Source of the DNA: Escherichia phage vB_EcoM-RPN226
Sequence record: OL770073.2
DNA length: 64,000 nucleotides
Reading direction: 5' to 3' (one strand)
Numbering within the stretch: the first letter of the stretch is position 1; every line of letters begins with the position of its first letter. Below the pieces are notes generated by a model, which made no database searches, had not been told where the DNA came from, and was given only the letters and a program-made list of their open reading frames with translations. Of this stretch, positions 1,561 through 47,060 are shown one piece after another. The position numbers were made by a program, and so were the translations under genes.

Positions 1561-2841
1561 TTCATCAACGATAATTTTTGGTAATTTAACACCTAATAAA
1601 ACAGACAAATCTGAACGACCCGCCATTTTATCCATGTCTCCACCATCAATTATTCTTGCTTCTTTTTCATCTTTTGCTACAGTGTAAGGATTTGCAGATA
1701 AAGCATATCTAACCAATAAACCGATAGATGGTTGTAAGCTTTCTGGATCAACCACAACTTTAAATGCACCTACATGTTCAGGGTCATCTAAGTCGAGACC
1801 TTCTGTATACGGAGCATAGAAAATTGATCCGACAATTTCTTTTTCACCAATATTTTCTACTACGCCAACGATTACATAATCTAATGGGCTGTTAGTATCG
1901 CAATAAAGCGGTAAACCATTAGCTAAGAACCCATAGGCATTTTGTGAAAGATATTTATCATCTTCTGGTTTATGTTTTAACCAACCTGATGCAGCAAGAA
2001 TCGCAGCGGCACGAGCTGAAGCAACACAGAACGTTGCAGTATAAGTTGATTCTTTTTGGATATGCGAAACCATTTCACATACCATTCGGTATAATGAACG
2101 ACCAGCTTCAGGTGCAGATGCATAACTCAAATCGATGAATCCACTATCAGTAATTCCTGTAACTTTATAGCGTTTTGACACTGTAATCAAAGACTGCAGA
2201 ATATCTTTATTGATTTCATCTGCCATTTCAGTTGCAAGCAAATCTTCCAAGAAATTAGGAGCATCGAATCCATTTGCTTCTAAATCTTGCGCTAATTCAA
2301 CTGTGATGCCAGTTTTAAGTTTACGAGATTTAACCGCGGTTTGCCATTTATTAATCTGGAATCTAGCATCCGCAATTTCACTATCAGAGCTTTCAAATTT
2401 GCTTGTTGACGCTGCGTCAGAAAATAGACGAACCTTTAAAAGAACAATTGCAATCTGAAGAGCTAGCTCTAAGTCACTTTCTTGAATATCTGCAAATGGT
2501 GTATCTTCTAACACTTTATAGACGATATTATTATATTTGAATAAATCGCCTTTATTGAGAGTTAATTTAGACTCTTCTGTTAATTCTGTGATTTGTTCTC
2601 GGTCTACGTATCCAGCTTCGCCAGCATAAGTAGCACCAGTTTTAAATGTAAATTCGTTATCTGGGTTAAGGTATTTGATACCGTAAAAAGCAGCAACAGG
2701 TTGATTAGTTCTTTGCGTTGCTACAATGTCAGAATATATTAATTTAGTGGTAGCGCGAGTCAAAGCAACGAGATTTGGGCGACCGATTGAGTTGCTATTC
2801 GTTGTGGTTGATTCGCGCAGAAGTTCGTTGATTTTAGCCAT
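1558..2841 (-). CDS. 24: head vertex protein gp24
   Basis: 427 aa, gp23-like fold paralog, sits next to gene 23 as in T4; late promoter TATAAATA upstream on minus strand. Confidence 0.9.
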   Translation of the reverse strand: MAKINELLRESTTTNSNSIGRPNLVALTRATTKLIYSDIVATQRTNQPVAAFYGIKYLNPDNEFTFKTGATYAGEAGYVDREQITELTEESKLTLNKGDLFKYNNIVYKVLEDTPFADIQESDLELALQIAIVLLKVRLFSDAASTSKFESSDSEIADARFQINKWQTAVKSRKLKTGITVELAQDLEANGFDAPNFLEDLLATEMADEINKDILQSLITVSKRYKVTGITDSGFIDLSYASAPEAGRSLYRMVCEMVSHIQKESTYTATFCVASARAAAILAASGWLKHKPEDDKYLSQNAYGFLANGLPLYCDTNSPLDYVIVGVVENIGEKEIVGSIFYAPYTEGLDLDDPEHVGAFKVVVDPESLQPSIGLLVRYALSANPYTVAKDEKEARIIDGGDMDKMAGRSDLSVLLGVKLPKIIVDE

Positions 2842-2868
2842 TGCGCTTTCCTTTTGGTTTATATGATT

Positions 2869-2876
2869 TATTTATA
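2869..2876 (-). promoter_or_regulatory. late promoter (TATAAATA) for gene 24
   Basis: TATTTATA on plus strand 28 nt upstream of gene 24 start; second copy at 2899-2906. Confidence 0.6.
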
Positions 2877-2915
2877 CTTTTCACGTGATGTGATAAAATA
2901 TTTATAGGAGGATTT

Positions 2916-4427
2916 ATGTCTATTGATATTTATAAAGATAAAAATGGCAAGCTGAACAAGAACTGGAAAATGATACACGCTAAACACCCTGAAATCATTG
3001 ATAGTATTGAGTTGCCATATGATGACCCTAAAACAAAAATCGTTTTAGCGATAAACGGAATGACAGAACTTAGCCGCTGTAAAAACTGTGGTGTTGAGAT
3101 GGATATCTCGAAGCTTGGCTCAGATTATTGCTCTAGAAAGTGTTCAGCTAACTCATCTGAAGTTAAGAGGAAAAAGCTTGATAGCATTAATCTTGAAGAA
3201 CGCGGCAAAAAAATTTCTGAATCTCTTAAAGGTAAATCCACTGCAAAATCTTGGAATACTCGTAAGAAAAAGTATGGTGAAAAAGGATTTAGCCAAACTG
3301 GGATAGAAGCTATCAAAAATAACGGAGTTAATTCTAGCGAAAAACGAATTAATACAATGATTACCCGTTATGGAGTTAAAAACCCGTTTCAACTGGAAAG
3401 CGTGATTGAAACTATATCCAAGGTTCAAACAGAGAATAACACCGCACGAAACCATTTACCCGGTTGGCTGTATGATAAGAATAAATTTAAACAAGTTTAT
3501 TCTAAATCTGGAATTAGAGGAATAATCAAAAAATCTGGCTGCGGTGCAAATTTAGCATATGTTTTATCACGTGAATATCAGCTCCGAGATATGAAAACTA
3601 CTTCGGCCGAAACAGAGATTCTGAGTTTTATTAATGAACTCGGGTTTGAAGCAGAGAAGACGCGCCAAGTGATAGCACCTTTTGAGCTGGATATCTATGT
3701 CCCAGAGAAGAAGCTTGCTATTGAGTTCAACGGTCTTTACTGGCACAGTTCAGGCTCAAAGGAACAGGACATTATTAAGAATAACCATCTCAAAAAGACT
3801 GAGATGTGTGAAGCACAAGGAATTCATCTGCTGCATATCTTCGAGAATGAATGGGTAGATGATACTAAACGCGAGATATGGAAATCGGTTATTAGAAATA
3901 AACTTGGTAAATCTGAACGCATCTATGCGCGTAAATGTAAGGTACATCCGGTTGATTCTAGAGCTGCTAAAGAGTTTTGTGAGTATAACCATTTACAGGG
4001 TCATGTCCCATTCCAGAATGCCCTGGGTTTATTCTATAACGATGAATTAGTACAGTTGGTCACATTTGGCAGAGGCCGCTATCAAGGTAAAACCGAATTA
4101 CTTCGTATGTGCACAAAACGTGGATACAGCGTAGTAGGTGGTGCTTCAAAACTTCTCAAGGATAAGAAATTTATTTCTTATGCTAACCGTAGATGGTCTA
4201 TGGGTAATGTGTATCAACAGATCGGTATGAAACAGATTGGTGTTACTCCGCCGTGTGACTATTATTTTGATAAAGGCCGTCTGTATCACAGGTCAAGTTA
4301 TATGAAACACTTATTAAAAGACAAGCTCAAAGTTTTTGATGAAAATCTTAGCGCGATAGAAAACTGTTATAACAACAAAATAAGAAGAATTTGGGATTGT
4401 GGTAATATAGTTTATGAATCCCAATAA
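2916..4427 (+). CDS. putative homing-endonuclease-like protein with Vsr/PD-(D/E)xK-type nuclease core and N-terminal Cys cluster
   Basis: 503-aa ORF antisense to the late cluster between genes 23 and 24; strong RBS taggagga; CKNCG...CSRKC zinc-finger-like cluster; FELDIYVPEKKLAIEFNGLYWHS resembles Vsr/DUF559 motif; no GIY-YIG motif. Confidence 0.55.
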   Translation: MSIDIYKDKNGKLNKNWKMIHAKHPEIIDSIELPYDDPKTKIVLAINGMTELSRCKNCGVEMDISKLGSDYCSRKCSANSSEVKRKKLDSINLEERGKKISESLKGKSTAKSWNTRKKKYGEKGFSQTGIEAIKNNGVNSSEKRINTMITRYGVKNPFQLESVIETISKVQTENNTARNHLPGWLYDKNKFKQVYSKSGIRGIIKKSGCGANLAYVLSREYQLRDMKTTSAETEILSFINELGFEAEKTRQVIAPFELDIYVPEKKLAIEFNGLYWHSSGSKEQDIIKNNHLKKTEMCEAQGIHLLHIFENEWVDDTKREIWKSVIRNKLGKSERIYARKCKVHPVDSRAAKEFCEYNHLQGHVPFQNALGLFYNDELVQLVTFGRGRYQGKTELLRMCTKRGYSVVGGASKLLKDKKFISYANRRWSMGNVYQQIGMKQIGVTPPCDYYFDKGRLYHRSSYMKHLLKDKLKVFDENLSAIENCYNNKIRRIWDCGNIVYESQ

Positions 4428-4477: not shown

Positions 4478-6043
4478 TTAGATACCTTTCACGTATACAC
4501 GGCGGAAGTAAGCATTTTTACCAAGGCTATTCAGAATAGAAGGCATACCGCTCTGGATGCGAGAAGCCGGAGCCTGAGCAGCGGATTCTGCAAATGGGTT
4601 GATACCGATACCGTAACGAGTTTTGAAACCCATAACAGGCTGGAAATTTTTCGGATCAGAACCACGCAGCGGAGTCAGAGCTACATATGGAGCATAGTAA
4701 ATACCAGCATCCATTTCGTTCGGACCTTTATAACCTACAGTGAAATAATCCTGTTTAGCATACTGGTCGATATATACACGGTATTTACCACCCAGAACAC
4801 CAGCAAATACTGACTTGGTAGTATCAGTGTTAAAGCCGGTAGCCAGACCCTGTGCAGCATAAGAAATGCCAGTATCAACTGAAGCCAGAACGTTAACTAC
4901 GTTACGGGAAGCGATAATGAAGTTACCTTCACCACGACCGGTCTGACGAGCAATTTCAACTGCTTCTTTGTCAATCTGGAACAACAGAGCTTTAAAGGAT
5001 TCACCCGCCCAGCGAGCACCACGAATATCAATCGGATCCTGGAAGTCAAATACACCAGCTTTAGAACCCGGAGTCAGGGTCATACCAGATTTACCAACCT
5101 GAGCTGAGTAGTTAATCCAATCAACAACTTCACGGTTGATTTCCAGCATGATTTCGGTAGCCAGAATACCAGACAGTTCAGCATCAGCATCCATACCGTG
5201 AACAGCGCGGAGGTCTTGTGCTAATTCGATAGAGTAAGCAGCTTTCAGCTGACGAGATTTAGCTTCGATAACTTGTTTATCGATACGGAAGCCCATTTCA
5301 TTCCATGGGTTATCGGTAGAACCGTTGAAACTTTCCTGGAGTTCAGCGATAGAAGTAGCCATACCTTCAGCGATTTCTACCAGTGCACCAGCTTCCATTT
5401 GTTTCTTAATTTCAGCATCTAATTTAGCTGCGTCAGTTGCACTTGAACTAATTGTTACTTGAGCAGAAGCTTGCAGATACACAGTACCAGTGTCCTGGAA
5501 GAAGTGAGTATAGATATCACCTGCTGTGGTTTGTGTGCTAGCAGCCAGAGCTGCGAATTTCTTAGCAGCACCCTGACCAGAGAACATTGCATCTGGACCA
5601 TACATTGGGTGGAATGCTTCTTTAGCACCAGAAGCGACCGGGTCTTTACCATATACTGCGCGCAGTGCGAATACCTGGCCAGTCGGGCTGTTCATCGGCT
5701 GAACACCGCAAATATCGAAAGCAATCAGGTTAGGAATAGCACGACGTACCATACCCATAACAGCTGGGCCAATCTGAGTTACTGCGCCAGAAGTCTGACC
5801 TGCAGCGATGTTGGTAGCATTGTAACCGTGGTCACCGCCGATTTCAGCTTCTGTTAAGAAAGAACCAAATGCCTGAGCAATTTTTTCGTCTTTGTACTCT
5901 GGAGCTGTCTGGAAATCTTTTTCCTGGTTTTCAAAGATTTTAGCGATAATCGCTTGTTTGCTATTAGCAATTTCCGGTAAACCTTCACCTTCCAGTAATG
6001 GCTTCCATTTGTTCAAAAGTTCAGCTTTAGTTTTGATAGTCAT
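4478..6043 (-). CDS. 23: major capsid protein gp23
   Basis: 521 aa, MTIKTKAELLNKWKPLLEGEG... matches remembered T4 gp23 almost residue for residue. Confidence 0.95.
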   Translation of the reverse strand: MTIKTKAELLNKWKPLLEGEGLPEIANSKQAIIAKIFENQEKDFQTAPEYKDEKIAQAFGSFLTEAEIGGDHGYNATNIAAGQTSGAVTQIGPAVMGMVRRAIPNLIAFDICGVQPMNSPTGQVFALRAVYGKDPVASGAKEAFHPMYGPDAMFSGQGAAKKFAALAASTQTTAGDIYTHFFQDTGTVYLQASAQVTISSSATDAAKLDAEIKKQMEAGALVEIAEGMATSIAELQESFNGSTDNPWNEMGFRIDKQVIEAKSRQLKAAYSIELAQDLRAVHGMDADAELSGILATEIMLEINREVVDWINYSAQVGKSGMTLTPGSKAGVFDFQDPIDIRGARWAGESFKALLFQIDKEAVEIARQTGRGEGNFIIASRNVVNVLASVDTGISYAAQGLATGFNTDTTKSVFAGVLGGKYRVYIDQYAKQDYFTVGYKGPNEMDAGIYYAPYVALTPLRGSDPKNFQPVMGFKTRYGIGINPFAESAAQAPASRIQSGMPSILNSLGKNAYFRRVYVKGI

Positions 6044-6061
6044 TTGTGTTAACCTTTAAAA

Positions 6062-6871
6062 TTAGAAACGAGATGCGACTTTCGCATATACACTTACAAT
6101 ATCTTCTGCACCAGGTGCAGCTTTATCTTCTACAGCTTCAGTGACGAAATTCAGTCCGGCTGCTTCAGTATCAGGAGTATTTATACCCTCAGTAATAGTG
6201 CTTTCATCTTTATTAGACTTCTTCACCATTTCTACGATGGCACTCAATTTATTTGAGAATTCATCTGAATAATCCATACCTTCGACCAGAGCAGAGACTT
6301 TTTCTTTTTGAGACTCAGTCAGATCTTTAGTACTTTCGCTCAATGCCACTTCACGCTGCACATAATTGATATATGCGTCACGCTTATTGAGTTCTTCGAA
6401 CAGACGAGCTGATTCTTCTTTATGTTCTTGCAGCTCTTCTTCCATTTCAGCCACAACATCAACTGATTCTTCTGGAACAACAACGTTGTGTTCAACAAAG
6501 AGCTCTTTTAATCCACCAAGCATGGATTCAAACAGTTCGGCTTTGATGCCTTTATCAACTGCTAATTTATTTTCAGCGAGCCATTCTTTCGCAAGATGGT
6601 CAATGAATTTAGAAGCTTGCTCAGCGATTTTCTTCTCAGCTTTTTCTTCGGCTTCTTCTTTATTTTTTTCTACTTCTTCTTCTGCTTTTTCAGCAATTTT
6701 AGCGATATGAGATTCAGCTAATTTAACGGCGTGCTGCTTGACGGTAGCTTCGAATACAGTGCCGAAAGTTTCTTTTGCTTCCGGAGAAATATTAACTGAT
6801 TCGAAAATACTATCAAGAGCAACGGAAGCATCAATTTTTTGCGCTTCAGCAATCAGTTGTTCTTTAAGCAT
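6062..6871 (-). CDS. 22: prohead scaffolding core protein gp22
   Basis: 269 aa, highly acidic and coiled-coil rich, position between 21 and 23. Confidence 0.85.
   Translation of the reverse strand: MLKEQLIAEAQKIDASVALDSIFESVNISPEAKETFGTVFEATVKQHAVKLAESHIAKIAEKAEEEVEKNKEEAEEKAEKKIAEQASKFIDHLAKEWLAENKLAVDKGIKAELFESMLGGLKELFVEHNVVVPEESVDVVAEMEEELQEHKEESARLFEELNKRDAYINYVQREVALSESTKDLTESQKEKVSALVEGMDYSDEFSNKLSAIVEMVKKSNKDESTITEGINTPDTEAAGLNFVTEAVEDKAAPGAEDIVSVYAKVASRF
6178..6185 (-). promoter_or_regulatory. late promoter (TATAAATA) for gene 23, inside gene 22
   Basis: TATTTATA on plus strand about 135 nt upstream of gene 23 ATG. Confidence 0.55.
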
Positions 6872-11108: not shown

Positions 11109-13088
11109 TTAACCTGCAAGACCAGTTAACTCATCGAAATCTGCACCAGTAGCAGTTGCGACGAAATTAAGTTGGATATAATTTATACTACGAGCCGGTT
11201 GAATGTAGAATGTTGCAACAAACTCATTTCTATCAATTACTGACGGAGTGTTATTTGTTGTATCGCAAACTACACGATATTCATAAATTCCACCGAGAGC
11301 TTTAATTCCCTGCAAGTACTGGGAAGTTTCTGTGCGGAACGATGAACGAGTAAACGCGTTGTTTAATTCGAACAAACGATATTTTGAACTACGTCCGATA
11401 TTCGTTTTTAACATATTAAACAGACGACGAACGTTAATACGATCAAATGGAGAAGGAACAGAAGTAGCTGTTTTATCACCATACAATACGTAACCATCAC
11501 CACCTGTACCGGTTACCGGGTTGATAGCTTCTTGATATAAACGGTCGCGCTGCGCCTGGCGAGTTTCAATAGCAAGTTTAATAACGTTAAGAATCTGGCC
11601 ACGATTATAACCAGCTGGAGACATCCAAGTCTGAGAAACGTTATCAGTTCTTGCACACAAACCAGCAATATCAGCTGCTAATGGAACCCAACGATTCACA
11701 TCATTATATTTGTCATACTGATACTTGTAGTTACCATCGATTGCTGCATAGGTTGAACTGATATTAAAGTTGTTATCAGTGTATGAACCTGCTGCAGTTC
11801 TCCAATTGACTAAGTTATCAACAGCACGAGTTACAGGAATTCCAACTACAGTTTCACGCGGTGGTGAGCACAGTACTAAGCAATCTTGGCGAGCATCACC
11901 AATTGAAACGACGTGTTTTTGGACAGTAGATGCTGTTTCTAAAGATTCGCCGGCGCAAGAACCCGCAATAAACAACTGAACGTCAACAGATTCACGGTCA
12001 GCAAAGAAGTCCCAAGCTTCCATCAAATCTCCTGCTGTCACTTCAGCATTTGATGATAATCCACCAGACAGAGTTAAAATTCCAGAGAAGCCTTCTGGCC
12101 AGTTTTGCGCAGTTGCAAAAATATATTCTGAACCACCTTTTGCGAAAAAGTCATCAATATAGATGTTACTATCGTAAATATCTTTTTCACCACGCTTTGT
12201 TGAAAGAACAACGCTTTGAACAATAGCATCATTGCGACGAACTATAATAGCGTATTGTGAATCAGTTTGTGGTCCATATCCAAACACTGCCTTGGCAGTA
12301 GATGCGCGGGTTCCGCCGCCTGGATAAATTGGAAGTAATGCAGAAGCCCCTTTTGCGTAGTCAGCTTTAGATACGATTTCAATTTCGATTTTATCGCCCA
12401 ACTCGCCTGGATAAAGAGCTACTACTCCTGGAATTCCATATTTTTCGAGATTTGCTTGAAAGTCAACAGCTGTCATAGCAGCTTCGGCATTTTCAATTTC
12501 AGCTAATAAAATACCAGAATCAGTAATAATTTTTCCAAGAGTTATTACTGCAGCTAAACCAGAGGAAGACGAAGAAATTTCCGCGGTCCAGTTAGAACCT
12601 AATGCTGGATATTCGCCTACTTCTTTCGCTTTAGCGATAATTTTTGCGGTAGGAATATTAATTTTCTTAATTTTTCCATCAGCATCTACTTCGGTAACTT
12701 TACATTCTGTTTCAATGTCTTCTGAAACATACTTAACCGTGATTTTATCTCCAACCGCGTAGTTACTACCTGGGGTAGAAATAGTGTATTCAATATTACC
12801 GGCAATCGGAGATGAGTTTTTAGCGGTATCTCTATCGACAGCACGCACAACTCGCAAATCATTTCCGTATTGTAAGAAATTCATTGCAGACATAAAATAG
12901 TCAGCAGTTTCAGCTGTAGGTTGACCAAAAGTATTAACTAAATCTACTTCGTTTGTAACCTGTTTAATTTGAAAAGCAGGACCCCACTGGAATTTACCGG
13001 CCAAAGCTGCTGTACCAGTAGAGTTATTAACCACGGTGCTTTGAACCGTAGTTTCTTTGAGCTCAATGCCCGGAGATAATAAAGTCAT
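11109..13088 (-). CDS. 18: tail sheath protein gp18
   Basis: 659 aa, matches T4 gp18 length and order. Confidence 0.95.
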   Translation of the reverse strand: MTLLSPGIELKETTVQSTVVNNSTGTAALAGKFQWGPAFQIKQVTNEVDLVNTFGQPTAETADYFMSAMNFLQYGNDLRVVRAVDRDTAKNSSPIAGNIEYTISTPGSNYAVGDKITVKYVSEDIETECKVTEVDADGKIKKINIPTAKIIAKAKEVGEYPALGSNWTAEISSSSSGLAAVITLGKIITDSGILLAEIENAEAAMTAVDFQANLEKYGIPGVVALYPGELGDKIEIEIVSKADYAKGASALLPIYPGGGTRASTAKAVFGYGPQTDSQYAIIVRRNDAIVQSVVLSTKRGEKDIYDSNIYIDDFFAKGGSEYIFATAQNWPEGFSGILTLSGGLSSNAEVTAGDLMEAWDFFADRESVDVQLFIAGSCAGESLETASTVQKHVVSIGDARQDCLVLCSPPRETVVGIPVTRAVDNLVNWRTAAGSYTDNNFNISSTYAAIDGNYKYQYDKYNDVNRWVPLAADIAGLCARTDNVSQTWMSPAGYNRGQILNVIKLAIETRQAQRDRLYQEAINPVTGTGGDGYVLYGDKTATSVPSPFDRINVRRLFNMLKTNIGRSSKYRLFELNNAFTRSSFRTETSQYLQGIKALGGIYEYRVVCDTTNNTPSVIDRNEFVATFYIQPARSINYIQLNFVATATGADFDELTGLAG

Positions 13089-38839: not shown

Positions 38840-39112
38840 ATGAAAACTTTCAAAGAATTTATCAATGAAGCTGCTTTTAACGAAAAAGTAAAAATTAGCA
38901 AAGCTGTCAAGACTATGATTGATAACATCAATTACCTATATGGTATTGATTTAACTGACTATGTAACAGTTGGTAACAAACGTAACTATTTCGTGTTTGA
39001 CATCTCTGAACTTGACCAGAATCAAATTAACAACATTGAGCGTTTTGCTAATGATAAGGGTCTTCGACACGAGCCTGGTGGCTATAAAAAATACGCAATT
39101 TATTTAAAATGA
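38840..39112 (+). CDS. ipI: internal protein I-like (capsid-targeted, candidate anti-restriction protein)
   Basis: 90 aa, N-terminal capsid targeting sequence MKTFKEFINEA with gp21-type cleavage sites after Glu; own early promoter at 38780. Confidence 0.65.
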   Translation: MKTFKEFINEAAFNEKVKISKAVKTMIDNINYLYGIDLTDYVTVGNKRNYFVFDISELDQNQINNIERFANDKGLRHEPGGYKKYAIYLK

Positions 39113-39740: not shown

Positions 39741-39813
39741 TGGGAATTAGCCAAGTTGGTAAGGCATAGCACTTTGACTGCTAGATGCAAAGGTTCGAGT
39801 CCTTTATTCCCAG
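39741..39813 (+). tRNA. tRNA-Gln (anticodon TTG)
   Basis: acceptor stem TGGGAAT/ATTCCCA, T-arm GGTTCGAGTCC, anticodon loop CTTTGAC read by hand. Confidence 0.8.
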
Positions 39814-39814
39814 C

Positions 39815-39901
39815 GCGAGAATGGTCAAATTGGTAAAGGCACAGCACTTAAAATGCTGCGGAATGATTTCCTTGTGGGTTCGAGTCCCACTTCTCGTACC
39901 A
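39815..39901 (+). tRNA. tRNA-Leu (anticodon TAA)
   Basis: acceptor GCGAGAA/TTCTCGT, long variable arm, T-arm GGTTCGAGTCC, encoded CCA; forms a dimer unit with tRNA-Gln. Confidence 0.8.
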
Positions 39902-39907
39902 AAGTTT

Positions 39908-39979
<72 letters not shown>

Positions 39980-39992
39980 AAATTTAATTTAC

Positions 39993-40065
39993 TCCGTGTA
40001 GCTCAGTTTGGTAGAGCGTCTGCTTTGGGAGCAGAATGTCGCAGGTTCAAATCCTGCCGCGGAGA
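39993..40065 (+). tRNA. tRNA-Pro (anticodon TGG)
   Basis: D-arm TAGCTCAGTTTGGTAGAGC, anticodon loop TTTGGGA, T-arm GGTTCAAATCC. Confidence 0.8.
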
Positions 40066-40067
40066 CT

Positions 40068-40154
40068 GGAGGCGTGGCAGAGTGGTTTAATGCACCGGTC
40101 TTGAAAACCGGCAGTCGCTCCGGCGACTCATAGGTTCAAATCCTATCGCCTCCG
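40068..40154 (+). tRNA. tRNA-Ser (anticodon TGA)
   Basis: acceptor GGAGGCG/CGCCTCC, long variable arm, anticodon loop CTTGAAA, T-arm GGTTCAAATCC. Confidence 0.8.
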
Positions 40155-40161
40155 TAATTTC

Positions 40162-40234
40162 GCTGATTTAGCTCAGTAGGTAGAGCAACTCACTTGTAAT
40201 GAGGATGTCGGCGGTTCGATTCCGTCAATCAGCA
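40162..40234 (+). tRNA. tRNA-Thr (anticodon TGT)
   Basis: acceptor GCTGATT/AATCAGC, D-arm TAGCTCAGTAGGTAGAGC, anticodon loop CTTGTAA, T-arm GGTTCGATTCC. Confidence 0.8.
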
Positions 40235-40240
40235 TATCAA

Positions 40241-40312
40241 GGCCCTGTAGCTGGAAGGTTCAAGCAAGCGACTCATAATCGCCAGATGGTGGTTCAATTC
40301 CACCCAGGGCCA
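40241..40312 (+). tRNA. tRNA with CAT anticodon (Ile by T4 analogy, would be called Met by anticodon alone)
   Basis: acceptor GGCCCTG/CAGGGCC, anticodon loop CTCATAA, T-arm GGTTCAATTCC. Confidence 0.7.
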
Positions 40313-40319
40313 TATTTTG

Positions 40320-40360
40320 GGAACATAAATACTCTTAGAAATAGGAGATATTTATGTTCC
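40320..40360 (+). promoter_or_regulatory. 12-bp perfect hairpin sequestering segB start codon; SD in loop
   Basis: GGAACATAAATA (40320-40331) pairs with TATTTATGTTCC (40349-40360); ATG 40354-40356 in 3' arm; loop carries AGGAGA; 5' arm contains CATAAATA, a near-late-promoter. Confidence 0.6.
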
Positions 40361-41019
40361 ATTACACTTATAAAATAACAAATAAAATTAATAATAAAAT
40401 CTATATAGGCGCTCATTCTACCGAAAATTTAGATGATGGATATATGGGTTCTGGTAAATTATTAAAAAGAGCCCAAGACAAGTATGGTATAGAAAATTTC
40501 TCTAAAGAAATATTAGAGTTCTTTGACGATAAAACCTCTATGTTTGAGTCAGAAAAGAATATTGTGACTGAAGAGTTTTTAAAGCGCCCTGATGTTTATA
40601 ATTTGAAATTAGGTGGTGAAGGTGGTTGGGACCATTTAAACACTAAAGAATATTTGGATAAAAAGAAAGAAGCTTCCTTAAAAGGGGCTGCTGCTTTTAA
40701 AACCAGATTTGAGAACGACCCAGACCTTAAAGAAAAATATCGTAAAATGGGTTCAGAAAGGTTTAAACAGCTTTGGGATAATCCTAAGTATAGAGAGAAA
40801 TTTTTAAATACTAAATCTTTCTTGGGTAAGACCCATACTCCTGAAACTATTAATAAAATGAAAGAATCTCACGCCAAAAATAAACACCAACAAGGCGAAA
40901 AGAATTCCCAATTTGGTATGATGTGGATTCATTCATTAGATGAAAAAGTTTCTAAACGTATTAAGAAAACTGACCCAATTCCAGAAGGATGGTTTAAAGG
41001 TCGAAAAATGAAATTTTAA
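40354..41019 (+). CDS. segB: GIY-YIG homing endonuclease SegB-like, embedded in tRNA cluster
   Basis: 221 aa, GIY-YIG motifs YTYKITN...KIYIGAH; start codon sits in the 3' arm of a 12-bp perfect hairpin. Confidence 0.8.
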   Translation: MFHYTYKITNKINNKIYIGAHSTENLDDGYMGSGKLLKRAQDKYGIENFSKEILEFFDDKTSMFESEKNIVTEEFLKRPDVYNLKLGGEGGWDHLNTKEYLDKKKEASLKGAAAFKTRFENDPDLKEKYRKMGSERFKQLWDNPKYREKFLNTKSFLGKTHTPETINKMKESHAKNKHQQGEKNSQFGMMWIHSLDEKVSKRIKKTDPIPEGWFKGRKMKF

Positions 41020-41022
41020 TTA

Positions 41023-41099
<77 letters not shown>

Positions 41100-41415
41100 G
41101 ACAAGAAACCGGGTCGCTACCGGTAAGTCGTCGGACTGATGTTCCCTGAGTAAGGAATTGTGTTAATAAATCTTTATGATTTGTTGATGCCCTCTTACAT
41201 CACAGCAGAAACGGCGCTCAGAATTATCGATTCGAGGAAATATCTTTGCCGTAAGCCGAGTAGCGTTTTTGACGGAACGTTCGGATATGGTCGAGATATG
41301 GCCTTTTAAAAATATTGAGTAGCGTCAACTACTTAATAACCGGGTTCGAATCCCGGCGTTTCGTACAAACACTTGCCTTAGCAGGTGGAACCCCGACAAG
41401 GTTGCCGCAAGGCTT
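41100..41415 (+). ncRNA. small stable RNA region (T4 species 1/2, rnaC/rnaD-like, tRNA-like 3' element)
   Basis: about 320 nt non-coding between tRNA-Arg and a rho-independent terminator; contains tRNA-like T-arm CCGGGTTCGAATCCCGG; boundaries uncertain. Confidence 0.4.
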
Positions 41416-41443
41416 AGCCCCAGCCGAAAGGTTGGGGCTTTTT
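41416..41443 (+). terminator. rho-independent terminator after stable-RNA region
   Basis: AGCCCCAGCC-GAAA-GGTTGGGGCT hairpin plus TTTT. Confidence 0.7.
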
Positions 41444-41445
41444 AG

Positions 41446-41453
41446 TATAAATA
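41446..41453 (+). promoter_or_regulatory. late promoter (TATAAATA) for CTS-protein gene at 41493
   Basis: TATAAATA directly after terminator 41416-41443. Confidence 0.5.
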
Positions 41454-41492
41454 TAGTAGTGTATTAAATCACGAATTAAAACAGGAAATAAG

Positions 41493-41966
41493 ATGAAATC
41501 ATATGCTCAATTTTTAAATGAAGTGGCGTTAAATGAAGCATCCGCTTCAGATGTTCGCGCTGTAGCAACTGCTGCTATTAAAGCTGGTAAATATTCTTAT
41601 AAAGATGCTTCTGATGAATCCCGGTACAAGTTCTACGACGATATGAGAGCTGAAGGCTTTGTGGGTAACTATGTTACCACCGCCTGGAAAAGCCTGGTTG
41701 CTACTGGTGCGGCTTTCGAAAAACCTTCCGGTAAACCTGCTCCTAAAGCAGATCCTAAAGCTGCACAAGAAAAAAATATTGTTAAAGGAATTATCGCTAA
41801 ATATGAAGCTATCCTTAAAGAGCTTTTAGTAATCAAAACCGAAGGCCAAAAGTTAGCCCGTGCTTATAGTTTCAAAGACAACCCACATGCTCATGACCTA
41901 GAGTATGTTGAAGACATCCAAAAAATTATTAAAGACCGCATTTGGTCTGCTAAACAAATCAAATAA
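41493..41966 (+). CDS. capsid-targeted internal-protein-like protein
   Basis: 157 aa, N-terminal CTS MKSYAQFLNEVALNEA, flanked by two copies of the same terminator hairpin and preceded by TATAAATA. Confidence 0.55.
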   Translation: MKSYAQFLNEVALNEASASDVRAVATAAIKAGKYSYKDASDESRYKFYDDMRAEGFVGNYVTTAWKSLVATGAAFEKPSGKPAPKADPKAAQEKNIVKGIIAKYEAILKELLVIKTEGQKLARAYSFKDNPHAHDLEYVEDIQKIIKDRIWSAKQIK

Positions 41967-41972
41967 CATTTT

Positions 41973-42000
41973 AGCCCCGACCGAAAGGTTGGGGCTTTTT
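41973..42000 (+). terminator. rho-independent terminator after CTS-protein gene (near-duplicate of 41416 terminator)
   Basis: AGCCCCGACC-GAAA-GGTTGGGGCT hairpin plus TTTTT. Confidence 0.7.
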
Positions 42001-42121
42001 GATATCTAGGCCTTTCTGGACCTCTCTAGGCATCATTTAGTTTATACCCTTTATAATATATTATCCTATCCTTTAATTGCCCATCCCTGCCCTAGAATTC
42101 CCTAAAACTTTTTAAAAATTT

Positions 42122-42177
42122 TTTCACAAAACGGTTTACATCCCCGTTCTTCCATGGTACTATACAACTATCAACTA
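42122..42177 (+). repeat. dispersed early-promoter module repeat, copy 1 of 3
   Basis: TTTTCACAAAAC..GTTTACA..GGTACTATACAACTATCAACT also at 54913-54968 and 56375-56408. Confidence 0.6.
42134..42166 (+). promoter_or_regulatory. early promoter module
   Basis: TTTTCACAAAAC upstream element, GTTTAC at 42134-42139, GGTACTATACAACTATCAACT -10 region. Confidence 0.6.
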
Positions 42178-42207: not shown

Positions 42208-42471
42208 ATGGATAATTACGGCGAACTGTTCAACTTCTTTATGAAATGCGTTTCAGAAGATTTCGGTCGTACAGTGAATGATATTAAAGTTATCGGTCCT
42301 GATCATCCGATGTTTGAAACTTACGCAGTAATGGGTAATGAAGATGGTCAGTGGTATACTGTAAAGGTTGTGATTAACATGTTCACTGCTGAAGGTTATG
42401 TTAAACTGTCTTCTAAAGTTTACCATGATAACGACGAAATCGCAGAAGAATATTTTAATAATATGAAATAA
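42208..42471 (+). CDS. hypothetical protein
   Basis: ATG at 42208 after GGAG, downstream of early promoter at 42134; longest ORF start 42154 lies inside the promoter. Confidence 0.45.
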   Translation: MDNYGELFNFFMKCVSEDFGRTVNDIKVIGPDHPMFETYAVMGNEDGQWYTVKVVINMFTAEGYVKLSSKVYHDNDEIAEEYFNNMK

Positions 42472-42526: not shown

Positions 42527-43057
42527 ATGTCTCTTTATACCGAACTGAATGAAACTTCCGAAAAATCTTTTGATGGTATCTTATCAATAATGCAAAAGCA
42601 GGTATTAGAACAGCTTAGTGAAGCCGCAAGCAACGGACATAAGGCTTGTCGAATCCCAAGCCCACATCGTCGCCTGTATGAACGCCCTCTTATTAATTGG
42701 CTAGAAAGCGAAGGTCTTACAGTTAAGATTTGTCCTGCCAAATTTGATGTCCCACGTATTCTTAATATTTACTGGGATAAACCGATTGAGAAACCGATTG
42801 AGAAAAGTGAACCTTGGGTTGTCAATGTAAAAACATATGATAATGGATGCTCACTTGAGGTGTCTGCTGTAATTAAAGGCACTCACGGTGAAAAATCGTG
42901 GGGTTGGCCTGGCAAAGATAAAGAAATCGTGTTAAGTGTAAAAGCTACTAGTATTAGTACTCCTATAGCTAAAAGCATTATCGCCGCCGCTGTTGAAGAA
43001 GCTGAACGAATTTGTAAAATTAAAAATAGTTTACATCTCTTAAATAGCATGATATAA
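42527..43057 (+). CDS. hypothetical protein
   Basis: 176-aa ORF with RBS gaggaa; internal KPIEKPIEK duplication. Confidence 0.45.
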   Translation: MSLYTELNETSEKSFDGILSIMQKQVLEQLSEAASNGHKACRIPSPHRRLYERPLINWLESEGLTVKICPAKFDVPRILNIYWDKPIEKPIEKSEPWVVNVKTYDNGCSLEVSAVIKGTHGEKSWGWPGKDKEIVLSVKATSISTPIAKSIIAAAVEEAERICKIKNSLHLLNSMI

Positions 43058-45486: not shown

Positions 45487-46289
<803 letters not shown>

Positions 46290-46463: not shown

Positions 46464-47060
46464 ATGAAAACGTATCAAGAATTTATCGCCGAAGCTTCTG
46501 TAGGAAAGGTCCAAGGCATTAATAAAGATGAGTGGACTTACCGAGGAAACGGCTTTGACAACCCAGGAAACGGCTTTGACCCTAAAACAGCCCCTATTGA
46601 ACGGTATTTAGCTACAAAGGCTTCCGACTTTAAAGCTTTCGCCTGGAAAGGACTTCGCTGGCGTACCGACCTAAATATTGAAGTTGACGGACTTAAATTT
46701 GCTCATATTGAAGATGTTGTTGCTAGTAACTTGGACGCAGCTTTTGTTAAAGCTGACTTTGACCTTCGTCGCTGGAATTTAAAACTGTTCTCTAAACAGA
46801 AAGGTCCTGTGTTTGTGCCTAAAGCTGGTAAATGGGTTATTGATAATAAATTAGCTAAGGCTGTCAACTACGCTGGTCTTGAATTCGCCAAGCACAAATC
46901 ATCATGGAAAGGTCTTGATGCAATGGCTTTCCGTAAAGAATTTGCCGATGTTATGGCTAAAGGCGGCTTTAAGGCAGAAATAGACACCTCTAAAGGTATG
47001 TTTAAGGACGCTAATGTTCAGTACGCTTATGCCGTTGCTAATGCAGCCCGTGGTAATTAA
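46464..47060 (+). CDS. ipIII: internal protein (IPIII-like, capsid-targeted)
   Basis: 198 aa, CTS MKTYQEFIAEA. Confidence 0.65.
   Translation: MKTYQEFIAEASVGKVQGINKDEWTYRGNGFDNPGNGFDPKTAPIERYLATKASDFKAFAWKGLRWRTDLNIEVDGLKFAHIEDVVASNLDAAFVKADFDLRRWNLKLFSKQKGPVFVPKAGKWVIDNKLAKAVNYAGLEFAKHKSSWKGLDAMAFRKEFADVMAKGGFKAEIDTSKGMFKDANVQYAYAVANAARGN

Follow-up and report, generated by a model that had tools for sequence, protein, structure and literature searches.

The stretch analysed here, 64,000 nucleotides (nt) of Escherichia phage vB_EcoM-RPN226 (record OL770073.2; hereafter the window), includes a 557-bp module between the stable-RNA gene rnaC and gene e.8 that is absent from T4 and that consists of a late promoter, an open reading frame (ORF) of 157 codons and a duplicate of the terminator hairpin of rnaC. 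We consider it probable that this module is a self-contained late-gene cassette for a protein of the internal protein (Ip) class, for which the inhibition of one host defence protein would be the most likely task. As judged from its sequence, the gene belongs to that class as an unnamed member, and the Ip loci as listed so far do not include its site; this is the new element of the present analysis. The phage is T4-like, of the genus Tequatrovirus, and the region around the module is its tRNA/stable-RNA cluster. This region matches 697 phage records, the closest being Escherichia phage sutha with 99.3% identity.

A probable late-gene cassette between two terminator repeats

Two hairpins, at 41416–41443 and 41973–42000, bracket the gene and agree at 26 of 28 bases (coordinates are those of the window, and all features lie on its + strand). 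Both have the make-up of an intrinsic terminator, with a 10-bp stem including seven G-C pairs, a GAAA loop and a T-run, and each has a folding energy of -20.6 kcal/mol that was matched by none of the shuffles. When up to three mismatches are allowed, the 28-mer is confined to these two sites in the 64-kb window, and 100 shuffles gave an expectation of 0.00. The similarity extends beyond the hairpins to a 35-nt direct repeat of 89% identity with a spacing of 557 bp. Its left copy (41414–41448; stem-loop 41416–41439, T-run to 41443) terminates the tRNA/rnaC transcription unit and is also the recombination joint on the left, and its hairpin is the sole copy in T4 and Yersinia phage PST. The right copy (41971–42005; stem-loop 41973–41996, T-run to 42000) terminates the cassette gene and is the joint for recombination on the right. 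The hairpins differ by a dinucleotide swap, AG (41422–41423) in one and GA (41979–41980) in the other, and this swap keeps the pairing to the TT of the opposite arm by A-U and G-U pairs in either order. Phage sutha has GA in both copies.

The T4-type late promoter core TATAAATA (41446–41453) lies at a distance of 40 nt from the downstream ATG and begins 2 nt past the left T-run. A ribosome-binding site, AGGAAA, is read from the sequence at 41483–41488, and the coding sequence of the 157-amino-acid (aa) Ip-type protein (phrog_2280; RB32ORF132c/fD1 g140 family) occupies 41493–41966. The early-type promoter nearest to the cassette lies about 135 nt past the right hairpin copy. No recombinase or homing endonuclease was found inside the 557-bp module. 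An earlier note on this DNA, made from the letters alone, had described the 157-aa ORF as lying between two near-identical 28-bp terminators in what looked like a self-contained cassette. The ORF and its flanking elements are all at the coordinates it gave, the terminators are present there, and the cassette does have a late promoter and a terminator of its own.

The gene is real and under purifying selection, with a ratio of non-synonymous to synonymous substitution rates (dN/dS) of 0.18 between the window and RB51. The rates are uneven along its length (dS 1.2 and dN 0.20 for codons 17–80; dS 0.31 and dN 0.02 for codons 81–157), and the difference in dS argues for a mosaic ancestry. Positive selection on the N-terminal domain was considered and rejected, since dS is raised there as well. 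Some phages carry frameshifted or truncated copies of the gene (P0007–P0009), as expected for a dispensable accessory gene.

Targeting leader and association with the virion

The ORF product begins MKSYAQFLNEVALNEA, and its N-terminus can be written MKSYAQFLNE-VALNE-A. In IPIII, the first 10 residues suffice for packaging, also of foreign proteins; targeting depends chiefly on residues 4 and 7 and processing on residues 8 and 10, and cleavage by the prohead protease gp21 falls after Glu (PMC9026906, a review of Black laboratory work). The window protein matches at all four of these positions (Y4, F7, L8 and E10, compared with Y4, F7, I8 and E10 of IPIII), and the proposal of the earlier note that its leader is a capsid targeting sequence (CTS) thus holds where the sequence has been mapped by experiment. 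The leader (codons 1–15, 41493–41537) combines the CTS MKSYAQFLNE with a second unit, VALNE, and has two L-x-E sites of the gp21 type, LNE at residues 8–10 and 13–15, followed by V and A, respectively. A putative gp21 motif accordingly stands at the end of the leader, with cuts predicted after Glu10 and/or Glu15.

A regular expression for CTS leaders retrieved four ORFs in the window, where 0.01 were expected in shuffles. The other three are at the classical ipI and ipII/ipIII loci and are labelled internal head or virion proteins in PHROGs. They comprise a 90-aa CTS-bearing Ip at the ipI locus (38840–39112; phrog_7673, not T4 IPI), a 93-aa acidic Ip (pI 5.5) directly after gene e (46008–46289), the leader of which ends in LNEA as in the 157-aa protein, and a CTS-bearing IPIII homologue of 198 aa (46464–47060). 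When the protein was compared by blastp with 16 annotated Ips from T4, PST, RB51, RB69 and the window, matches were confined to the first 12–31 residues, and without its leader it had no match among the same 16. Identity with PST IpIV or RB51 Ip4, likewise 157 aa long, was rejected, as these are unrelated in sequence.

Among homologues the leader is variable, with MKTYNEFLMTE, MKSYAEFLTE, MKFKEFLAE, MLEYSEFLKELFCE, MLKFNEFLAE and MISFNEFVDGNLITE as variants, and leaders (MKSYAQFLNEVALNE, MKTYNEFLMTE and MKSYAEFLTE) are exchanged among alleles. All variants stop just before the conserved AS(A/S)(S/T)(D/E)(V/I). Leaders that end where the conserved mature part starts are the pattern expected of a cleaved targeting peptide.

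In Yersinia phage fD1 (phiD1), the same gene is found in the same place (g140, 67942–68415, 157 aa). Its product was reported as a phage-particle-associated protein by tandem mass spectrometry coupled to liquid chromatography of ultracentrifuge-purified virions (Skurnik et al., 2021; PMC8309999, Table S3), and it is marked “No” in the last column of that table, which we read as the lack of a T4 homologue (PMC8309999). The list is unspecific, because it includes DenV, NudE, lysozyme and host proteins. The suggestion in the earlier note that the protein is packaged has support from the detection of a homologue in purified virions, although the mass spectrometry entry for g140 does not settle it. 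On balance, packaging and processing of the window protein seem quite likely. It is improbable that the leader is instead a relic of recombination among Ip genes and that the product, never entering the head, acts in the cytoplasm as an ordinary late accessory protein. Such an origin would agree with the exchange of leaders among alleles, a sign of recombination in that segment, and with a particle record that is unspecific and concerns a homologue only. Yet every homologue, across four genera, keeps an aromatic residue at position 4, Phe7 and an L-x-E-type site right before the conserved mature N-terminus, which would be unexpected in a relic. Moreover, the first 10 residues are enough to package foreign proteins (PMC9026906), and g140 was above the detection threshold in fD1.

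From a precursor of 17.3 kDa, the mature protein is predicted to be of about 15.7–16.3 kDa with a pI of 9.2–9.3. An AlphaFold2 model (mean predicted local distance difference test score 74) has a confident three-helix N-terminal domain (N-domain) at about residues 17–75, a disordered Pro/Lys/Ala linker at 76–87 and a less confident C-terminal helical hairpin at 88–154. The whole protein (residues 1–157) matches the hidden Markov model of PHROG phrog_2280, a family of unknown function, with E = 2.3e-54. Foldseek searches with the model gave no match with E < 2 in the PDB and only its own homologues in BFVD; the best E value in a sequence-profile search of the PDB was 0.63, and there were no matches in Pfam, NCBIfam or PADLOC. 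A basic, all-helical protein with a Lys/Pro/Ala-rich linker and an N-domain unusually conserved across genera could be packaged by its CTS and still have a structural or DNA-associated part in the head, as a basic filler, a counter-ion or a core-assembly helper as proposed for IPIII, mutants of which show head-assembly aberrations (PMC9026906). We regard this as unlikely. The gene is absent from T4, T2 and PST and occurs in frameshifted or truncated form elsewhere (P0007–P0009, and the neighbouring gene 2 in RB69), which argues that it is dispensable for head assembly, and all three T4 Ips now have anti-restriction targets.

Allele states and ancestry of the rnaC/e.8 junction

The junction occurs in four states. 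In the first, the gene of the window (gene 1) is present alone, as in the window itself, sutha and RB51. In the second, found in Nami, EcNP1 and many others, gene 1 is followed by a second copy of the same hairpin and then by gene 2, a further CTS gene (MKTYAEFLTEAAKLPSE..., 187 codons), which has a different hairpin of its own at its end. RB14, G3F7 and FL44 have gene 2 only, and T4, T2 and PST have neither. In T4, the single hairpin is followed directly by the upstream region of e.8 (GGGGCTTTTT next to GGTATCTAAGCC), and rnaC and e.8 are 295 bp apart, compared with 853 bp in the window; the flanks are 97–99% identical to the window although the gene is absent. PST has an empty site like that of T4, and T2 matches over an equally short span of 294 bp. 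In a sample of 60 records evenly spaced down the ranking of 697, about 33 had gene 1 only, seven both genes, two gene 2 only and seven neither, while 10 matched at the left flank only. The earlier note treated a gene of this kind at this spot as not known from T4, proposed a comparison across T-even genomes and would have been refuted by a locus conserved in all T4-like genomes with no sign of cassette behaviour; T4 indeed lacks the gene, and the four states, all joined at the hairpin, are the opposite of such a result. Its view of the gene as an extra one did not hold in the sense of rarity, as about 450–510 sequenced T4-like genomes carry gene 1.

Whatever the state, sequences diverge right after the run GGGGCTTTTT or GGGCTTTTT, and continue with AGTATAAATA into gene 1, with AGTTTGAATCAC into gene 2 or with G(G/A)TATCTAGG into the e.8 flank. 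The GenBank entry of RB51 already describes RB32ORF132c as “flanked by 34 bp imperfect direct repeat”. It is conceivable, but very improbable, that the repeated terminators are a passive trace left by a single old insertion or deletion, at a locus that is not an active site of exchange. The module has neither a recombinase nor a homing endonuclease inside it, and the hairpin is not dispersed, as it has only two copies in 64 kb. A passive origin is nevertheless difficult to reconcile with all four combinations of two unrelated-looking CTS genes at identical joints, with the presence of gene 2 in the same setting of hairpin and e.8 flank in RB69, a Mosigvirus, as in the Tequatrovirus alleles, and with the mosaicism of gene 1 seen as a dS of 1.2 in its N-terminal half and 0.31 in its C-terminal half.

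In the stretches analysed, gene 2 is found at 3793–4356 in Nami, 6001–6564 in RB14, 11429–11991 in RB69 and 1201–1689 in phage CT01. The RB69 reference has a frameshifted version, annotated as ORF149c and ORF148c. In CT01, a 24-residue segment of the matching linker, between two KISK repeats, is deleted in frame, which is consistent with the linker being a flexible tether.

By tblastn, gene 1 was found in 511 phage records, 467 of them with at least 80% of the protein covered, and gene 2 in 165. A profile search of 1.84 billion representative proteins returned 11 relatives only; those that could be placed were all from T4-like phages, and most had a CTS-like leader. In Klebsiella phage KpnM6E1 (Jiaodavirus), a homologue follows directly after the tRNA genes (2483–3016 of the analysed stretch), and ahead of it are a hairpin and a junction, GGGGCTTTTTAGTATAAATAT, identical to that in the window. 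Over 85 residues, its N-domain and that of the window protein are 58% identical; the C-terminal domains differ. In Yersinia phage fHe-Yen9-01 (Tegunavirus), two genes in tandem, for gp154 and gp153, stand behind a hairpin and then TATAAATA (1922–3037 of the stretch); gp154 is akin to gene 2 (24% identity over 190 residues) and gp153 to gene 1. The order of this pair is opposite to that in Tequatrovirus. The distant homologues from KpnM6E1 and fHe-Yen9-01 keep the N-domain and have another C-terminal domain with a “TPDLY” segment. Judged from the sequences, this pattern suggests domain exchange within a family of injected proteins.

The arrangement is old, because in Jiaodavirus, too, the tRNA cluster is followed by a terminator, a late promoter and a CTS gene, and the same order is found in fHe-Yen9-01. 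The simplest reading of the sequences is that T4, T2 and PST are deletion derivatives, formed between the hairpin repeats, and this is more likely than a gain by the phage of the window. The two genes may themselves be related. Both belong to phrog_2280 (Nami gene 2 matches with E = 2.5e-53), but direct comparison aligns them over the 12-residue leader only by blastp and over a 26-residue C-terminal helix only, with 36% probability, by hhalign. Bridging sequences such as P0012 combine the “TPDLY” segment of the Yersinia proteins with the “...DRIWS.K.IK” ending of gene 1. An origin of genes 1 and 2 by ancient tandem duplication is plausible from sequence comparison.

The genes around the cassette are as follows. 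Seven tRNA genes (39741–40312) are followed by the homing endonuclease gene segB (ORF 40354–41019), of the same size and at the same position as in T4, by a tRNA-Arg gene (41023–41099), by a homologue of rnaD (species 2 stable RNA; about 41104–41217, 91% identical to T4) and by a homologue of rnaC (species 1 stable RNA; 41227–41365, 138 of 139 bases as in T4), the last gene of the cluster. No Rfam family matched rnaD or rnaC at gathering thresholds. To the right of the cassette, an early-type promoter-like site conserved in T4 (TTTACA, 17 nt, TACTAT; 42135–42163) marks the start of the next transcription unit, and the e.8 homologue (42208–42471; 256 of 264 bases as in T4, 97%) is the right flank that is common to T4.

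Other differences are found nearby. The gene segB, which encodes a GIY-YIG homing endonuclease in T4, is located between a tRNA gene with CAU anticodon and tRNA-Arg (40354–41099), as in T4. In sutha, the nearest phage in the cassette region, tRNA-Tyr, tRNA-Asn and a 184-aa ORF are found at the segB position, so that the region is mosaic. The tRNA-Arg (UCU) of the window does not align at all with that of T4. ARAGORN assigned 40241–40312 to tRNA-Met (CAT), and the counterpart in T4 and RB51 is annotated as tRNA-Ile with a CAU anticodon. Between e.8 and e.6, a 176-aa ORF (42527–43057; phrog_6869, RB32ORF130c-like) takes the place of T4 e.7, and RB14, PST and fD1 have a 58-aa ORF at this position, which is another small polymorphic slot adjoining the cassette.

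Relation to known systems and proposed function

Ips are diverse injected proteins that have only the leader in common (PMC3012670; PMC12373910). Ip1, Ip2 and Ip3 each inhibit one distinct type IV restriction enzyme of the GmrSD type (Silas et al., 2025; PMC12373910), and the literature speaks of “two Ip loci”, ipI and ipII/ipIII (PMC12373910). The window protein resembles the T-even Ips in having a CTS with a predicted gp21 L/I-x-E site, in being small and basic, as most members of the class are, in a mature part unrelated to the others, and in being non-essential with a presence that varies among close relatives; an association with the virion is reported for its homologue g140, in the unspecific fD1 list. 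It differs from them in its two-domain build with an N-domain conserved across four genera, in having a late promoter only, and in its location at a third site, the rnaC/e.8 junction, outside both Ip loci, although location at an Ip locus describes the class and does not define its mechanism. RB32ORF132c/RB51ORF140 and fD1 g140 represent one gene at one locus, with 84–86% amino-acid identity, whereas RB14ncORF136c and RB69ORF148c/149c correspond to the neighbouring gene 2. Every sampled GenBank record labels the product of gene 1 “hypothetical protein” and none names it an Ip; the records of these ORFs are silent on function and on the CTS. Works cited for the T-even Ip series, Ip4–Ip10 included, are Repoila et al. 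(1994), Bair et al. (2007) and Silas et al. (2025). The annotators of RB51 assigned the names Ip4 and Ip5 from similarity to published Ips and left the ORF of gene 1 unnamed, and for this reason the product is probably not one of the published Ip4–10. A literature search revealed no paper naming RB32ORF132c, RB14ncORF136c or RB69ORF148c/149c and none with the leader strings.

The organization of the locus is reminiscent of the promoter-early stem-loop (PeSL) cassettes through which modules are shuffled in genomes of the T4 type (Arbiol et al., 2010, PMC2839356; Comeau et al., 2014, PMC4122927). As in these, variable ORFs are flanked by a terminator hairpin with a promoter fused to it, and this composite marks the joints of insertions and deletions among close relatives. 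Unlike in PeSLs, the promoter is the late TATAAATA and not of the early sigma-70 type, the hairpin is not dispersed but present in two copies in the 64-kb window at no more than three mismatches, and the module ends a stable-RNA operon. The Ip class, shuffling of the PeSL type and the 34-bp repeat in the RB51 record are already known.

By analogy with Ip1–3, the cassette could work as follows. The gene would be transcribed late from TATAAATA, the leader would dock the product into the prohead's scaffolding core, and gp21 would remove this leader after Glu10 and/or Glu15, such that a basic protein of about 16 kDa stays in the head. The mature protein would be ejected with the DNA and would act at the first moments of infection, before phage gene expression, as a stoichiometric inhibitor of one host defence protein directed against the incoming glucosyl-hydroxymethylcytosine DNA. 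Specificity may come from the conserved N-domain or from the exchangeable C-terminal domain. Recombination at the hairpin repeats, through 34–35 nt between copies of identical type or about 9 nt (GGGCTTTTT) between unlike hairpins, would delete or transfer cassettes and would explain the empty site in T4, T2 and PST. The anti-restriction role raised in the earlier note is plausible by the same analogy. The chances that the protein is an anti-defence factor may be about even, and a GmrSD-family enzyme as its target is a doubtful proposition.

Several observations weigh against the cassette protein as an Ip-class inhibitor. Structure, profile and family searches hint at no activity. The record of virion association is for g140 of fD1 and not for the phage of the window, and the fD1 list includes 113–137 of 277 gene products (41–49%) together with 672 host proteins (PMC8309999). 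In the leader, Ser3 and Gln6 deviate from the canonical MKTYQEF, and the other three Ip genes of the window are behind early-type promoters (GTTTAC..., then TACTAT or TATAAT), not TATAAATA. The 58% identity of the N-domain between E. coli and Klebsiella phages is above expectation for a fast arms-race inhibitor. Finally, ip4–10 were tried against further GmrSD variants and no new pair emerged (PMC12373910), from which it follows that membership in the Ip class does not predict a GmrSD target.

One possibility, which we put forward tentatively, is that the rnaC/e.8 junction is an unrecognised third Ip locus. It would harbour an old tandem pair of two-domain injected proteins (phrog_2280) that extends from E. 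coli phages to T4-like phages of Klebsiella and Yersinia and that was lost from T4 and T2, and its joint of terminator and late promoter would be the late-gene counterpart of the PeSL. These proteins could inhibit a T-even-active GmrSD subtype without a known Ip partner or a defence other than type IV restriction. Inhibition of the partnerless subtypes is conceivable because the phrog_2280 proteins are outside the set of ip1–10 that was tried.

In conclusion, the cassette at the rnaC/e.8 junction offers a concrete candidate for an Ip/defence pair rather than a new kind of system. Injected Ips are the first phage proteins to meet host immunity, and several GmrSD subtypes active on T-even phages are still without a known inhibitor. 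The gene family is found in roughly two thirds of sequenced T4-like coliphages and is missing from T4, T2 and PST; being common, absent from these phages and outside the usual Ip loci, it is a ready candidate for the next pair of inhibitor and defence. The clean four-state polymorphism provides a simple natural case of genes shuffled at a terminator hairpin, and the gene family may help to explain differences in host range among therapeutic T4-like phages.

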